Positions 30,347-35,739 of a stretch of 35,739 nt of DNA are shown here, in pieces. Location: contig JAWXCN010000235.1 in assembly GCA_034408725.1 (NCBI GenBank), positions 1-35,739 of the forward strand. The letters are read 5' to 3'. Below the pieces are notes generated by a model. That model was not told where the DNA came from and made no database searches. It saw only the letters and a list, made by a program, of their open reading frames with translations. This DNA comes from Candidatus Hydrogenedentota bacterium (GTDB taxonomy: Bacteria; Hydrogenedentota; Hydrogenedentia; Hydrogenedentales; SLHB01). The position numbers and the translations under genes were made by a program. Position 1 is the first letter of the stretch. Each line of letters begins with the position of its first letter.

Positions 30347-30372
30347 CGCCGAATCGGAATTCAGCGCTACAT
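30347..30372 (-). repeat. GTAG-type REP-like palindrome (copy 1)
   Basis: Reverse complement ATGTAGCGCTGAATTCCGATTCGGCG; related copies at 30601-30626 and 31996-32027. Confidence 0.75.
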
Positions 30373-30460
30373 CAATCGATGTATTTCTTTATAGATTAGG
30401 CGAGGATGTTGCAGTGGGGTTGGAGATTAATTTAAGGGGTATTTATGGATTTGCGTAGAA

Positions 30461-30545
30461 TGGACGGGCACGGACGGACACGGACTGACACGGACTAACA
30501 CGGACTGAATGGACTGAGTGGACGAAGCGGACAGGGTGGACGGGG
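30461..30545 (+). repeat. GGAC-core tandem repeat (10-mers grading into 9-mers)
   Basis: TGGACGGGCA CGGACGGACA CGGACTGACA CGGACTAACA CGGACTGAA TGGACTGAG TGGACGAAG CGGACAGGG TGGACGGGG. Confidence 0.85.
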
Positions 30546-30600
30546 AGTTGAGGCAGACGTCGTTGGCGTGGTCAGACGGCGCTCGGTAAAGATGGGGTTA

Positions 30601-30626
30601 ATGTAGCGCTGAATTCCGGTTTGGCG
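30601..30626 (+). repeat. GTAG-type REP-like palindrome (copy 2)
   Basis: ATGTAGCGCTGAATTCCGGTTTGGCG; 2 mismatches to copy 1. Confidence 0.72.
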
Positions 30627-30664: not shown

Positions 30665-30889
30665 ATGACGCACCTGTTAACGCTTGAAATTGGGTTAAAG
30701 CCATTAGAAATCAAGGCACTCAAAAAAATTGTTGAGACTCGGGACCAAGGTTGCACTTTAGATGCACTTGACGGATTTATTCATAATCGCCACGTTGAGC
30801 CAACAGAGTCGGAGCTTCGCGCGATTGTAAAGATGATCGAACCTCTATTGCGCATCACACTTGGCCGCATCGAGCCGTTTTCTCCATGA
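30665..30889 (+). pseudogene. C-terminal remnant of a HEPN-like methylase partner protein
   Basis: TLDALDGFIHN..VEPT...L..I...IEPLL resembles HEPN-like C-termini; ATGA overlap with the methylase; in-frame TAA directly upstream and no RBS. Confidence 0.55.
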
Positions 30890-31743
30890 AATTTATAACA
30901 CCTCTAAGATACCCCGGTGGTAAGGCGAGATTAGCGAGCGCGCTCGCTGATGTGATGGACGCTAACGGGCTAGTTGAGCCAGCGATGGCCGAACCATTTG
31001 CCGGGGGGGCCGGAGCGTCGCTTGAACTTCTATTTTCCGAAAAAGTCCGTTCGATTGCCATTAATGACTTAGACTATCGAATATTCGCATTCTGGTGGGC
31101 AATTCTTAATCACCCCGATCTGTTTTTGGAAGAGATTGAGAACTCGAAATTGTCGATTAAAGAATGGCGACGGCAGCGCGACATCTACCGAAATGCGCGG
31201 AAACACAAGCGTTTTGATGTAGGTTTCGCAACATTTTATCTAAATCGAACAAACAGATCGGGTATTCTGGTTAATGGGGGCCCGATAGGCGGGTTCCATC
31301 AGTCTGGAGAGTGGCGTCTTTCCGCTCGGTTTAACAAGTCGACCTTGAAAAGCCGGATTGAACGAATCACAGTATACAGGGATCGGATATCTCTTTATAA
31401 CCTTGACGCGATGGAGTTCGTTGATCTGCTAACTAAGAAGAACAAAAAGAATTTGTTTGTATATTTAGACCCTCCATACTACGAACAGGGAGCGCATCTC
31501 TATCTCTCTAAATATTCTCATGACGATCACGTTGCAATAGGAAAAATAATAATGCGTTGCCCGGACCTTAATTGGGTAATGACGTACGACGACGTTCCTC
31601 AAATTCGCGCCATTTACAAAGGATGCAGGATCAAGAAATTTTCGCTGAGATATACTGCGCAACGACGCCGAGAGGGTGAAGAGGTATTAATCGCTCCTAA
31701 AAGCATGGCGTTGCCAAAGAGAATTAGGTCTAACGGTTCATAA
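30886..31743 (+). CDS. D12-class (Dam-family) N6-adenine DNA methyltransferase
   Basis: TPLRYPGGK, EPFAGGAG (motif I), INDLD, FYLNRTNRSG and YLDPPYY (motif IV); AT-richer than its flanks. Confidence 0.95.
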   Translation: MKFITPLRYPGGKARLASALADVMDANGLVEPAMAEPFAGGAGASLELLFSEKVRSIAINDLDYRIFAFWWAILNHPDLFLEEIENSKLSIKEWRRQRDIYRNARKHKRFDVGFATFYLNRTNRSGILVNGGPIGGFHQSGEWRLSARFNKSTLKSRIERITVYRDRISLYNLDAMEFVDLLTKKNKKNLFVYLDPPYYEQGAHLYLSKYSHDDHVAIGKIIMRCPDLNWVMTYDDVPQIRAIYKGCRIKKFSLRYTAQRRREGEEVLIAPKSMALPKRIRSNGS

Positions 31744-31995
31744 CTTACACCTAACAGCCCGTGCAGAAGTGATTTTGATGATCACGCGAGTGGGCGGTGC
31801 CGGTTTCATGGTGGGTTTGAATTGACGGGTGAGTCGAAGGGGAACCGGAACCATGTCGTCCGTTGTGGAAGTCGTGTCCGTGCGCGGGGAGCGGACGTGC
31901 AGGCGATGCAGCCGAAGGAGCGGCCGACGTGTCCGTATGAGCGGACGGAGTACAACGCGCTGGTGACGGGTTGCCGGGGAAAACTCGTCGTAATC

Positions 31996-32027
31996 ATGTA
32001 GCGCCGAATCGTAATTCAGCGCTAAAT
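31996..32027. repeat. GTAG-type REP-like palindrome (copy 3)
   Basis: ATGTAGCGCCGAATCGTAATTCAGCGCTAAAT; its reverse complement matches copies 1 and 2. Confidence 0.72.
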
Positions 32028-32072
32028 CGAACTTTGCGCAACGCGACGGCGGGAAGGGTGCCGACGAGTGTG

Positions 32073-33512
32073 TTACCCGACACCCCATTCGCCTTCTTGC
32101 GAGGGCTGCTGGAAAATTCTGCGGCGGTCGGTTTCCATCATGCTCGGGCGGCGCTTTAGCGAGGCTTCGATTTTTGGGAACCCTTGAAACCGCGCGCTGG
32201 ATTTTTCGTAGCGTTCGATCAGGTGCAGATACATCATGAGGCGCGCGGTGCGGAACTGGCGCGGCGAGGAACAGTAGATGCTCATGCCGCATTCGGCGGC
32301 TTGCTGAATCGGGTCGGTAAATGCGCTTGGTGTCCGCGAGTCCTTTTCCGACCAATCAAACAGGTCAAGCTCTTCATTTTTGGGTTGTGCGTTGGTGGCC
32401 GACGCGTCGAACTCGAGGTTGAGGCGTTCGTAGGTGTCGATGAGTTGATCGAGCCAGTGGAGGATGGCGCGGTAGCCTTCGTCGGCAATATCGAGGTCGA
32501 TGCTGATGTCATCGACGTTTGCGGCAGTCCGTTGCGAAAGGTAGATGCACCGTTCCTCGTTGCGTTCGGGGATCATGCGGACGCGGGCCTTTTCCGCGGC
32601 GTCGCCGTAGTTGAAGCTTTCGAGGATGGTGGGGATGGTGAATTTGGTTTTCGACAGCAACGCGAGCTCACGCAACAACGGCCCGGCGAGTCCATCCTGC
32701 TCGAATGTCGCTTCGAGTGGCGGTGCTGGCGCGAAGAGTGCCGCGTCCCATGCGTGATGCGCGTCGGTGAAGAGGCCCGTGAGCTGCCGGCCAAGTCCTT
32801 CCGACCGGCCATTGACCGCGAGGGTCATGAGCCGCGCAAAATCCTGGGCGGGTTGCCAACCGGGTTTTCGCGCGAGATCGCGTTCGACGATGTAGCGCAA
32901 GGTCATCAGGCGGTCCATCGCGAGCCACGCGGTTTCTTCGGGAGTGCGCCAATCGACGCACAGGGTTTCGGACCAGCGTTGCGCCCATTCGCGCAACTGG
33001 CGCGCAGTGTAGCTTCGCGGTTGGCGCCGTACCTCTTCGAGGGACCCGGCCAGGACACGTTCCTTGCGCAGCACATCGCCGAATTCCTGGGAAAATTGCG
33101 CTGGCGCATCGGCGTACAGCAGCAACTCGTCGGTGCGGGCATCGTAGAGGTAGGACCGGAACAGATCGGTGACGAAGGCATAGCCCGCGCCGAAGAACCG
33201 GTTCGTATCTACCAGCGAGCGCGTGGTTTCGCAGAAATCGAGCCCCCGCTTAATGACGGCGGCAGGAGGTTCGAGCATTCCGGGTAAAACGAAATATGTG
33301 ACCATCGGCACGCCGGTACTCAGGCGAATGACGTTTGCCGTGGTCGAGGCTTGGCCCGGCACTGCGGCCGGCTCAATCTGGTCGGGGTCCGTCCAGCCGT
33401 GGAGGACGAGAAACTTCTCGGCAAACCGGTGCTGGTCTTCCCGTGAAGAATCGGCGAGGCGTTCCCACCACGACTCGCACAGGCGCTGGATGTCCATTCC
33501 GCTTCGCATCAT
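32073..33512 (-). CDS. Hypothetical protein; apparently catalytically degenerate type IIG (Eco57I-like) REase-MTase N-terminal scaffold
   Basis: Colinear motif echoes (FLVLHGW, AFVTDLFRSYLYD, ERVLAGSL, MDRLMTLRY.VERDL, LTGLF...WDAALF, RTARLMMYLHLIE, FPKIEASLK) but no PD-(D/E)xK, DPACGSG or NPPY. Confidence 0.72.
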   Translation of the reverse strand: MMRSGMDIQRLCESWWERLADSSREDQHRFAEKFLVLHGWTDPDQIEPAAVPGQASTTANVIRLSTGVPMVTYFVLPGMLEPPAAVIKRGLDFCETTRSLVDTNRFFGAGYAFVTDLFRSYLYDARTDELLLYADAPAQFSQEFGDVLRKERVLAGSLEEVRRQPRSYTARQLREWAQRWSETLCVDWRTPEETAWLAMDRLMTLRYIVERDLARKPGWQPAQDFARLMTLAVNGRSEGLGRQLTGLFTDAHHAWDAALFAPAPPLEATFEQDGLAGPLLRELALLSKTKFTIPTILESFNYGDAAEKARVRMIPERNEERCIYLSQRTAANVDDISIDLDIADEGYRAILHWLDQLIDTYERLNLEFDASATNAQPKNEELDLFDWSEKDSRTPSAFTDPIQQAAECGMSIYCSSPRQFRTARLMMYLHLIERYEKSSARFQGFPKIEASLKRRPSMMETDRRRIFQQPSQEGEWGVG

Positions 33513-33513
33513 G

Positions 33514-34119
33514 CTACGCCACACCCTTTGCTTTCGGGACGTTGTATCCCGCGGCCTCGATTCGCCGCCAGATGACGTCTTCCCGCCTACCCAACATATC
33601 CACACCGCGACGCAAAAATGCATCGATCCGCGGGTCGCCCCCGGCAAGGGCCAGCATGAACTCGTCCCGCGTCATGGTATCTATCGGCAAAAGGTCCGTA
33701 GACCCAATCTCCGGCGCGCGGCGTCCGGTGTAGATGAGCAACATTCGGGACTGCTCCTCGTCATGGACCAGGAGAATGATGGAAGAATCAAGTGCCGCTT
33801 CGCCGCGAATCCGGTCGAGTGGGGGGCCTGCTCGCAAGAAGAGGTTCCGCAGGTCCTGGAACAGAATGAATTGGGTATCGACCTGGTAGTACGTGCGGTT
33901 GCCTTCGCTGCGGCGGTAAAGCAACCGGATTTTGGAAAGGCGTTCCAACTCACGTTGCACGGCGCGGATGGGGAGGGCGGTGGCCGTTTCGATTTGGCGC
34001 TGGTAATAGTCTCGGGTGGGGTCGATGAGGAAGAGGCGCAGGACTTCGGCGCGCGCTCCCGACCCGAGGAGAGCGGCGAGCGTTTCATTGCCGCGCGGTG
34101 TTTTAGCAGTTCGACCCAT
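33514..34119 (-). CDS. Winged-HTH protein with degenerate C-terminal nucleotidyltransferase-like domain
   Basis: LLGSGARAEVLRLFL...YQRQI...AVQRELERL...GNRTYYQ...LFQDLRNL is the wHTH of HTH-MNT fusions. The C-part keeps IDTMTRDEF..GDP but lacks GS/DxD. Confidence 0.85.
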   Translation of the reverse strand: MGRTAKTPRGNETLAALLGSGARAEVLRLFLIDPTRDYYQRQIETATALPIRAVQRELERLSKIRLLYRRSEGNRTYYQVDTQFILFQDLRNLFLRAGPPLDRIRGEAALDSSIILLVHDEEQSRMLLIYTGRRAPEIGSTDLLPIDTMTRDEFMLALAGGDPRIDAFLRRGVDMLGRREDVIWRRIEAAGYNVPKAKGVA

Positions 34120-34190
34120 CGTCAAGGCTACACAGTTTCCAGCTTACCCACTCAACCGAATACACGTCCCAACCACTCCCTAGCAGTCGA

Positions 34191-34219
34191 AGAATACAGA
34201 ATGTAGTCGATGCTGTCAA
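34191..34219 (-). promoter_or_regulatory. sigma70-type promoter of the wHTH operon
   Basis: TTGACA-17 nt-TATTCT on the minus strand, ~70 nt upstream of the ATG. Confidence 0.75.
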
Positions 34220-34334
34220 GAGCGATTTTTTATCGCCTACGGTTTGTGGTGTGTCCGACCTATCCTCGTGGAATTTCCCAGCGTACGCATCGGTACGCGG
34301 AAAACATGAACCTTACACAAATGTATTTTTTGAA

Positions 34335-34353
34335 TGCGTTGCATCACGACGCA
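34335..34353. promoter_or_regulatory. Possible enhancer-binding-protein site upstream of sigma54 promoter
   Basis: Imperfect palindrome TGCGTTG-N5-CGACGCA, ~90 bp upstream of the -24 box. Confidence 0.3.
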
Positions 34354-34440
34354 AAATCAATCCAAATCTTCCCGTGAATGGGCGCGAACACATTGATTTC
34401 GCTCGTAGAAAGCCGGTGTGGGGTCTCGGCGATTCCAGAG

Positions 34441-34457
34441 TTGGCACACCCATTGCA
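34441..34457 (+). promoter_or_regulatory. sigma54 (-24/-12) promoter of PII-amtB
   Basis: TTGGCAC-ACCCA-TTGCA consensus upstream of nitrogen-regulated genes. Confidence 0.88.
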
Positions 34458-34472
34458 CTTTGGCGCACTTAG

Positions 34473-34898
<426 letters not shown>

Positions 34899-34988
34899 CG
34901 GCGAGTGGGCCTGCGAAGCATAACAGATTGAAAACGGGAGCCCTGAACGCGGGTGGCGCGATCAGCGGGCATGGCAAGGAGAATTGAA

Positions 34989-35739
34989 ATGCGATTGTTT
35001 GGGTTGAACTTGGGGAAGACATTTACGGGGGGCGTGCTAACCATCGTCCTTCTGATGTTGATCGTAGGCGGGGCGCTGCCCGCGTTTGCGCAGGTGGAGG
35101 AAGGGGTGACGGTGGAGGTCGCCGCGCCGGCGGAAGCGCCTGCGCCGGTGCTGGACACGGGCAATACGGCGTGGATGCTGACGTCGATGGCGCTCGTGTT
35201 GTTTATGACCATCCCCGGCCTGTCGTTGTTCTATGGCGGGCTGGTGCGTAGCAAGAACGTGCTCTCGATACTCGTGCAGTGTTTCGCACTGACGGCGGTG
35301 ATGACGCTTGTGTGGGTAATCATCGGGTATTCGATCGCGTTCGATACCTCGGGGCCGTTGAACAAATATTTTGGCGGGTTTGGAAAGATTTTACTGAGTG
35401 GACTTACGGTGGAATCGTTGTCGGGCTCGATTCCCGAAACGGTGTTCATTGCGTTCCAATGCACCTTTGCAATCATCACGCCCGCGCTTATTGTTGGCGC
35501 ATTTGCCGAACGCATGAAGTTTTCGGCGGTAATGCTGTTTTGTATCCTGTGGTCCATCCTGGTGTATTGCCCGATTGCGCACATGGTCTGGAGCACCGGG
35601 GGATGGTTCTTCGACATGGGCGCGCTCGACTTCGCCGGTGGTACGGTCGTTCACATCAATGCTGGCGTTGCCGCGTTGGTGGGAGCGATTGTCGTGGGGA
35701 AACGCAAAGGATATCCGACGACGCCGATGGCGCCGCACA
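34989..35739 (+). CDS. amtB: Ammonium transporter (partial, runs off window end)
   Basis: Hand translation: signal peptide, then LDTGNTAWMLTSMALVLFMTIPGLSLFYGGLVRSKNVLS...FQCTFAIITPALIVGAFAERMKF...DFAGGTVVHINAG; AGGAG RBS. Absent from the ORF track because there is no stop in the window. Confidence 0.97.
   Translation, partial: MRLFGLNLGKTFTGGVLTIVLLMLIVGGALPAFAQVEEGVTVEVAAPAEAPAPVLDTGNTAWMLTSMALVLFMTIPGLSLFYGGLVRSKNVLSILVQCFALTAVMTLVWVIIGYSIAFDTSGPLNKYFGGFGKILLSGLTVESLSGSIPETVFIAFQCTFAIITPALIVGAFAERMKFSAVMLFCILWSILVYCPIAHMVWSTGGWFFDMGALDFAGGTVVHINAGVAALVGAIVVGKRKGYPTTPMAPH

Follow-up and report, generated by a model that had tools for sequence, protein, structure and literature searches.

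Restriction-modification (R-M) enzymes are encoded by mobile defence genes that are patchily distributed. The closest described counterparts of the locus considered here are the type IIG/IIL R-M enzymes, and proteins in which a winged helix-turn-helix (wHTH) domain is joined to a minimal nucleotidyltransferase (MNT) domain. The latter layout is found in PDC-M05, a candidate system that is presented as toxin-antitoxin (TA)-like and as composed of a nucleotidyltransferase and a HEPN partner (PMC12988326). The locus is a two-gene operon on the minus strand of contig JAWXCN010000235.1 (assembly GCA_034408725.1) of a Candidatus Hydrogenedentota bacterium; the whole stretch of 35,739 nucleotides that was analysed is termed the window, and coordinates are positions within it. 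The operon encodes P0002, which carries a wHTH domain, and P0001, which resembles the first half of a type IIG/IIL enzyme. The evidence supports the descent of both proteins from defence-type folds (a type IIG/IIL N-terminal half and a wHTH-MNT protein) and their lack of the catalytic motifs of those families. The reading that we favour, and hold to be probable, is that P0002 is an autorepressor and that P0001 is a domesticated, probably non-catalytic R-M scaffold.

The P0002 gene occupies the minus-strand frame 34119..33514 (201 aa), and its TAG stop codon is separated by a single nucleotide from the ATG of the P0001 gene, which occupies the minus-strand frame 33512..32073 (479 aa). A sigma-70-type promoter is found upstream at 34191..34219 (minus strand), with TTGACA at 34219-34214, a 17-nt spacer and TATTCT at 34196-34191. 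It matches the consensus at 10 of 12 positions and is the sole such site returned by a consensus scan of 31700-34560, and a TTGACA...GTATAC(T) arrangement is found again at orthologous loci. The frames and the scan thus confirm the original prediction, made by a model from the letters of the sequence, that a TTGACA-17-TATTCT promoter precedes two intact open reading frames 1 nt apart; its description of the genes as host-like and GC-rich in style agrees with a GC content of 0.58-0.64 for the operon and 0.57 for its own 5.17-Mb assembly. P0002-P0001 is a real, translationally coupled operon and a core feature of one Hydrogenedentota order.

P0001 is without a match in Pfam, NCBIfam, PADLOC and PHROGs, including the sequence models MmeI_N, MmeI_hel, N6_Mtase and Eco57I (0 Pfam families), and its relationships have been traced through its predicted structure. 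An AlphaFold2 model built on 39 relatives reached a predicted local distance difference test (pLDDT) score of 90.0 and a predicted template-modelling (pTM) score of 0.88. In a fold scan of 48,161 representative PDB chains, carried out independently of Foldseek, nine chains were recovered at a Z-score (Z) of 8 or more, all of them R-M proteins: MmeI (5hr4; P0001 residues 125-478, Z 13.7-14.0, 271 aligned), PglX (residues 165-476, Z 11.3-11.6, 249-262 aligned), HsdM 3ufb (Z 10.0), the EcoKI M N-domain 2ar0 (residues 171-290, Z 9.8, 109 aligned, root-mean-square deviation (rmsd) 2.7), two more HsdM chains (Z 9.1 and 8.8), PacII (Z 8.7), the HsdR nuclease fragment 3h1t (residues 19-162, Z 8.4, 113 aligned, rmsd 3.7) and CamA 7lni (residues 304-461, Z 8.4). 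Below Z 8 stood EcoR124I HsdR 2w00 (Z 7.7) and the restriction-endonuclease-like chains 9y1l and 3ijm (Z 6.2-6.5). The best PDB rows in Foldseek were DrdV, BrxX, BpuSI and BsaXI, with weak E-values (from 3e-3), the DrdV and BpuSI structures aligning across P0001 residues 1-478; rescoring of the Foldseek list agreed with the chain scan and placed MmeI at Z 14.0. Among viral structures the best match, at E 7e-4, was an adenine methyltransferase of 868 aa. Of the 30 ESM Atlas clusters closest to P0001 by features, 21 carry MmeI_N together with MmeI_hel, and the closest models by structure belong to Eco57I, N6_Mtase and HSDR_N clusters, at template-modelling (TM) scores of 0.40-0.49. Also in the ESM Atlas are several large clusters of 314-411 aa with MmeI_N and MmeI_hel only, two examples from Bacillota having 114 and 68 members; proteins related to just the N-half of type IIL enzymes may be commoner than the P0001 family, or these clusters could be fragments or split genes.

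Taken in order, residues 1-160 (33033..33512, minus strand) adopt a PD-(D/E)xK nuclease-like fold that lacks the catalytic D...(D/E)xK, a membership assigned by fold only, on the basis of 3h1t and EcoR124I HsdR. Residues 165-295 (32628..33020, minus strand) form a helical domain similar to HsdM_N, at the N-terminus of HsdM, and to the helical spacer of MmeI (MmeI_hel), again recognized by fold, with no Pfam match. Residues 296-455 (32148..32627, minus strand) contain the Rossmann fold of a gamma-class N6-adenine methyltransferase as far as its third strand; these three strands are the only ones past residue 300 in the model, and the chain stops before motif IV. As modelled, the domains of P0001 follow the order seen in the first half of a type IIG/IIL R-M enzyme: nuclease-like domain, helical domain and start of the methyltransferase. 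The structural comparison with type IIG/IIL proteins that accompanied the original prediction as a check has therefore been made, and the likeness was found.

The motifs on which catalysis depends in R-M enzymes were followed through the family, invariance being scored over the 39 aligned relatives, counts being taken over 120 relatives among the matches listed, and eight MmeI-like proteins serving as motif controls. From W40 to D92, where the strands of a PD...(D/E)xK site would lie, there is no invariant or near-invariant D, E or K in the 39 relatives, and the strands at the nuclease site read SYxLR and AAHFVMPG. The position of the S-adenosylmethionine (SAM) loop is taken by D-h-x-x-[DE]-G-Y-R in 117 of 120 relatives (D-x-x-D-E-G-Y-R in P0001); strings resembling motif I occur in 9/120, in other places (residues 229-263, with one at 469). 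No [NDS]PP[YFW] was found in any of the 120, and SAM motif I and an NPPY-type motif are both present in all eight controls. A complete methyltransferase domain and a target-recognition domain (TRD) were not found in P0001, the chain of which ends after the third strand. The 120 relatives are 456-559 aa long, nearly all 470-490, and a search of 1.84 billion representatives gave 61 clusters, all of 490 aa or less, no search having been aimed at longer proteins. These checks uphold two earlier claims, namely that the PD/EAK residues and the DPACGSG SAM motif have been replaced, and that P0001 stops before NPPY and the TRD. That P0001 would be dead as a nuclease and as a methyltransferase is well founded on its sequence; the wider label of pseudoenzyme, a protein without any activity, is inferred from the lost motifs only.

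The family is far from featureless: its alignment holds 50 invariant columns, and the former cofactor site is marked by the invariant motifs ESFNYG, EKARVRMIPE, D-x-x-DEGYR and RQxRTAR. Invariant residues of the pocket comprise E298, N301, E307, R310, R312, D341, E345, R348, Q419, R421 and R424, with K308 nearly so. A set of five diverged relatives, obtained from the representative search and including one of Candidatus Sumerlaeota, shares only D92, L173, W176, W180, L287, K290, F291, G346 and Y347 with the invariant positions, and the charged cluster of the Hydrogenedentota proteins is not kept in these relatives.

The distribution of P0001 is that of a core gene. A profile of the family matches 130 of the 135 genomes of the phylum (83/86 of those of high quality, and 13 of 15 families), mostly once per genome, the extra matches coming from genes that are broken or split; of the five genomes with no match, three belong to the same order and two to others. 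The patchy presence that is typical of mobile anti-phage systems is not seen in P0001, whereas the Pfam domain MmeI_N, which marks true type IIL enzymes, is patchy (33/135 genomes). The window's own genome encodes, on another contig (C267:28491-29027, minus strand; locus L073), an apparently full-length MmeI-like type IIL enzyme with an open frame of 964 aa, an MmeI_N match (E 6.7e-40), DPACGCG and NPPF, so that active and relic forms coexist in one genome. Linkage of the gene pair, for which conservation had been proposed as a check, is firm: of 50 loci (46 different), 48 have the wHTH gene directly upstream of P0001, on the same strand and at a gap of a few base pairs. The P0002 family was detected in 113/135 genomes, a count that includes at least one genome with a paralogue only. 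When the window was compared with loci from 20 other genomes (21 loci in all), no third shared gene was found, and the flanks vary between genomes and are not defence islands. Ten Hydrogenedentota genomes, in all of which 1.4 kb or more of upstream sequence is available, carry the P0001 gene without the wHTH gene.

Beyond the phylum, distant relatives of 439-459 aa share the same architecture, one of them from Candidatus Sumerlaeota. A homologue search with the alignment of the diverged relatives returned three proteins, and a profile of the diverged family matches 62 of 75 genomes of the phylum that holds the Sumerlaeota loci. At eight different Sumerlaeota loci, the P0001 homologue has no wHTH gene as its neighbour. 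In one of them (L067, 3032-6556) the homologue stands between a cysteine-rich gene and a convergent gene, with no regulator and in housekeeping surroundings; by eye, the neighbours are presumably a QueH-like cysteine-rich gene and the tRNA 2-thiouridine synthase MnmA.

Both genes are under purifying selection, which is strong for P0001. Most pairs are saturated (synonymous rate dS > 1), with ratios of non-synonymous to synonymous rates (dN/dS) of 0.07-0.27; in the one pair short of saturation, the P0001 family has a dN/dS of 0.016 (dS 0.315) and the P0002 family one of 0.106. The original prediction had named three outcomes that would tell against it (no structural likeness to R-M enzymes, neutral decay of an active enzyme and unlinked genes), and none of them was observed.

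P0002 (33514..34119, minus strand) is an ArsR-type winged-helix protein (residues ~12-97 being ArsR/SmtB-like) fused to a probable degenerate minimal-nucleotidyltransferase-like C-terminal domain (~100-201). The protein is basic (isoelectric point (pI) 9.73). Residues 12-97 match PADLOC PDC-M05A (E 4.8e-16), and the winged helix resembles HlyU (Z 11.2), BigR (Z 11.1) and CzrA (Z 10.6) in fold. Hydrogenedentota also hold wHTH-MNT paralogues of ~200 aa that carry FGS...SDxD and score above the Pfam cut-offs for Polbeta and NTP_transf_2. Alignment of the P0002 family with these active paralogues by hhalign reaches 99.7% (E 3e-25) over residues 12-120, a match that begins in the wHTH and goes no further than strand one of the transferase domain. 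Aligned jointly with these paralogues, P0002 lines up from end to end but has lost the GS helix by deletion and has other residues in place of DxD; the catalytic G-S and D-x-D are missing in all 36 members of the P0002 family. By ESM features, offered as a lead only, 26 of the 30 clusters closest to residues 98-201 are Polbeta/NTP_transf_2 (score 0.91). The last 30 residues form a conserved motif specific to the family, and the gene partnered with P0002 is P0001, with no HEPN gene in that place. The assignment of the partner to the wHTH-MNT family without the GS/DxD triad has thus held, its homology through PADLOC and hhalign and its motif loss through the joint alignment.

Evidence for autoregulation comes from the regions upstream of the wHTH gene, which were surveyed at 41 different loci against shuffles. 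A palindrome over the start codon, TGACTA-N7-TAGTCA (two or fewer mismatches), is present in 25/41 loci (shuffles mean 1.4, max 5); it usually extends to TGACTAC-N5-GTAGTCA, and its TG lies inside the start codon. The conserved N-terminus of the P0002 family, 'MT....SQ', can be attributed to this overlap. A second site, GACT[AGT]C-N5-7-TAT.., is found in the promoter at 24/41 loci (shuffles mean 0.15, max 2), lying 3' of the -35 box, extending into the -10 box and preceding the wHTH start by 89-147 nt; in the window it reads GACTACATTCTGTATTCT, at -89. One or other site occurs in 36/41 loci when both lists are tallied. The predicted operator of the window, O1 (CGACTAC-ATTCT-GTATTCT; 34191..34209, minus strand), is an imperfect palindrome of the TGACTAC-N5-GTAGTCA type that fits the full palindrome at 11 of 14 positions, its right arm being the -10 hexamer. 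At ten loci that lack the wHTH gene, no -10 site and no N7-spaced palindrome was found, one N6-spaced match with two mismatches being the sole hit. A palindrome over the protein's own promoter is a trait of ArsR/SmtB autorepressors, here recognized by comparative motifs only. In genome G069 the operon's own site is the sole genome-wide match to the 14-base palindrome; genomes G034, G132 and G006 have no site for the 14-base palindrome at one mismatch or fewer. Taken together, these patterns are read as those of a putative dedicated autorepressor.

The original prediction had placed an autoregulatory operator at the promoter on the strength of an AGTCGA direct repeat. The predicted operator stands in substance, as an inverted repeat at 34209..34191, and the direct repeat does not. 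AGTCGA occurs at 34185-34190 and 34205-34210, and the hexamer is not enriched in the window (15 seen, 16.9 expected). The copy at 34205-34210 is the left arm of O1 and belongs to the conserved motif; the other (TCGACT on the minus strand, 34185..34190), just downstream of the -10 box, is not kept in three loci of the same genus (L007, L011 and L017) and is probably there by chance. In the window's own genome five palindrome sites were found against one for the control, and four of these lie inside a short repeated hairpin element. This element, of ~55 nt and in eight copies, consists of TT(A/T)A(A/T)TCGCG, the hairpin TGACTAC-N5-GTAGTCA, a variable GC-rich stretch and GTGCAACG; the copies lie at C14:40313-40363, C20:5840-5897, C51:43596-43644 and 44018-44065, C53:8236-8291, C111:13535-13585, C120:377-423 and C215:34577-34630. 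Its hairpin equals the consensus wHTH operator, though the operon of the same genome has no start-codon copy, and no Rfam match was found for the element.

A possible contact between the two proteins is suggested by the C-terminal tail of P0001 (residues 456-479 and the stop codon; 32073..32147, minus strand), a low-confidence stretch with a conserved RP-x-h-h...DR..IF...EW motif, the last block of which has a pLDDT of 48. Its RP-x-[LIVM]-[LIVMT] core is present at 18 of 20 loci with the wHTH gene, at 3 of 10 without it and in 0 of 6 distant relatives; the correlation is a lead only, because the losses may be few events.

In the mechanism that these observations suggest, a P0002 dimer would bind the 19-bp TGACTAC-N5-GTAGTCA-type palindrome, which lies over the -10 box here and also over the start codon in most other lineages, and would thereby repress its own operon. 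P0001 would be a non-catalytic binding scaffold from which DNA cutting and methylation have been lost, and would be the primary functional product of the operon, since there are lineages, and a second phylum, in which it persists unaccompanied by the repressor. The conserved tail of the Hydrogenedentota protein may act as a docking site for P0002 and tune repression, much like the partner proteins of TA-like operons. A fuller history can be offered tentatively, and is rather doubtful as a whole: a type IIG/IIL half would have been domesticated no later than the separation of Hydrogenedentota from Sumerlaeota, to become core in both, and in Hydrogenedentota a dead wHTH-MNT autorepressor would later have been recruited, reading the palindrome over the -10 box and the start codon and sensing the P0001 tail.

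Several observations weigh against the pairing of an autorepressor with an R-M scaffold. A PDB sequence search with the profile of the 39 P0001 relatives gave 0 matches, and the sequence kinship of P0001 with R-M enzymes is not significant: hhalign of the family with the N-halves of eight MmeI-like proteins of the same phylum gave a probability of 1.9% (E 0.025), and in a Pfam scan of each member 1/39 touched MmeI_N, at a noise-level E of 0.011. The hhalign pairing covers the block DRLMTLRY...GRQLTGLF with ERLLVRLLFCLF...LFxVL; of seven blocks that had been matched by eye to putative Eco57I-like strings, this one ('DRLMTLRY...LTGLF') was the only one recovered, non-significantly. The proposed type IIG order of blocks is accordingly borne out by fold (MmeI, PglX, HsdM, HsdR) and not by sequence statistics. 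The fold-match lists of P0002 are filled by winged-helix proteins, and it is alignment and features that point to an MNT fold for its C-domain. 'Non-catalytic' is a description drawn from missing motifs, and the invariant charged residues that ring the former SAM pocket in Hydrogenedentota members could make up a new site. The acidity of P0001 (pI 5.16) does not suggest general DNA binding. Repression is deduced from comparative motifs in related genomes that are not independent of one another, the start-codon palindrome is missing in the window's genus, where the window has the promoter site only, and the link between tail and repressor draws on few independent losses.

The lack of significant sequence similarity is also an argument for supposing that the type IIG likeness reflects a shared ancient fold or convergence and that P0001 has no full R-M enzyme in its ancestry. 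The age of the family, which spans two phyla, and the ESM Atlas clusters with MmeI_N and MmeI_hel only, by which N-half-only proteins exist, point the same way. We nevertheless consider this improbable, as three successive domains follow the order of MmeI, BpuSI and DrdV, motif positions are colinear with R-M enzymes, and a three-strand Rossmann stump that ends just short of motif IV is hard to see as ancestral. A less remote alternative, still unlikely, is that P0001 is a neo-functionalized enzyme or a small-molecule sensor, with a new pocket made from the former SAM-binding half-Rossmann fold. The dense invariant charged and polar residues at the former cofactor site of the 39 relatives, the very low dN/dS of P0001 (0.016) and the high model confidence in that region favour it, but the cluster is not kept in the five diverged relatives and the Rossmann fold is reduced to three strands.

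A defence or TA-like role for the pair, whether as an anti-restriction decoy or sensor or as a degenerate MNT-type antitoxin that guards an R-M-derived effector, would account for the origin of both folds in defence families, for the autoregulated two-gene layout, and for the closeness of P0002 to the profile PDC-M05A, which belongs to a system described as TA-like with a HEPN partner (PMC12988326); a PD-Lambda-5 remnant also lies next door. There is little chance that it is correct: P0001 is near-universal, single-copy and vertical (130/135) whilst MmeI-like genes are patchy (33/135), a core and vertical distribution that speaks against a defence role; the flanks vary and are not defence islands; PADLOC and PHROGs give no match for P0001; the known catalytic motifs are all missing; and the neighbouring methyltransferase is unlinked in other genomes. 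The original prediction, that two defence folds were domesticated into a non-catalytic module, therefore survives as regards the folds, the motif loss and the retention. Its suggestion of a decoy or sensor for anti-restriction DNA mimics is not supported, given a core single-copy gene with changing flanks and the pI of P0001, and a defence decoy is unlikely. Finally, the truncated architecture and the missing motifs could be those of a recently truncated R-M gene in neutral decay, an explanation that is refuted and retains next to no credence: the 120 relatives are uniform in length, 50 columns are invariant, a match is present in 130/135 genomes with the frame intact in most of the 130, and dN/dS is 0.016.

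If the fuller history offered above is right, the operon would be a rare case in which two defence-derived enzymes have jointly been turned into a housekeeping regulatory complex. One whole order carries a truncated, motif-less R-M derivative as a fixed, single-copy core gene, and a diverged form is spread across a second phylum; the domestication of a defence gene can thus be tested cleanly here, in lineages for which metagenomes are almost the sole source of knowledge. P0001 represents an unannotated protein family (no Pfam, NCBIfam or PADLOC model) with a predicted operator, and no description of it was found in the literature as judged by titles and the starts of abstracts. Its function, if found, would reveal non-catalytic uses of a nuclease-helical-half-Rossmann scaffold.

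Other features of the window lie on either side of the operon. A D12 Dam-like adenine methyltransferase gene at 30886-31743 (plus strand) matches PD-Lambda-5_B (E 1e-109), and a 74-aa frame 5' of it (30665-30889, plus strand) matches only the last ~55 residues of PD-Lambda-5_A. The GC content of 30665-31743 falls to 0.43-0.50, and no longer frame was found upstream of the 74-aa stub; the region looks like a remnant of a PD-Lambda-5 defence system that has lost its A gene, and other genomes show no linkage between it and the operon. The cassette is bracketed by a 27-29-nt repeat with the core GAATTCAGCGCTACAT, at 30347-30375, 30598-30626 (inverted) and about 32001-32028, the last (27 nt, about 32001..32028, plus strand) lying just downstream of the operon's stop codon. 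With 28 matches (two or fewer changes) in 21 contigs of the genome, this repeat looks like a REP-like intergenic element. A tandem 10-nt repeat, GGAC(G/T)G(G/A)CAC, of about four units occupies 30462-30501, in the spacer 5' of the PD-Lambda-5 stub. Divergent from the operon, at 34542-35738 (plus strand), lie a gene for a PII (GlnB-like) protein and the first part of one for an ammonium transporter, and this glnB-amtB adjacency to the locus is seen only in close relatives (L051, L063 and L032).

Set beside known systems, P0001 shares with the type IIL/IIG enzymes (MmeI, BpuSI, DrdV and Eco57I-like proteins) the succession of nuclease-like domain, helical spacer and gamma-class methyltransferase start. 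It differs from them in having about half their length, in lacking D...(D/E)xK, the SAM loop, NPPY and the TRD, in being core and single-copy where they are patchy, and in giving no Pfam or PDB sequence match. The helical N-domain and the first Rossmann part of the BREX proteins PglX/BrxX superpose on P0001, but PglX is an active protein of ~1200 aa in a multi-gene defence system and no BREX genes neighbour P0001. From type I R-M systems, both the HsdM N-terminal domain and the HsdR nuclease domain have likenesses in P0001, which fuses them in one truncated chain without catalytic residues and without HsdS or the HsdR motor. P0002 has the length and layout of the active wHTH-MNT paralogues of the PDC-M05 kind in the same phylum, from which it is set apart by the deleted GS helix, the loss of DxD, a family-specific C-terminal motif and a partner that is P0001 and not a HEPN protein. 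With the ArsR/SmtB autorepressors P0002 has in common the winged-helix fold and a palindrome over its own promoter, to which it adds the probable degenerate nucleotidyltransferase-like domain, and it is with these repressors that the motifs suggest it may also share its role.

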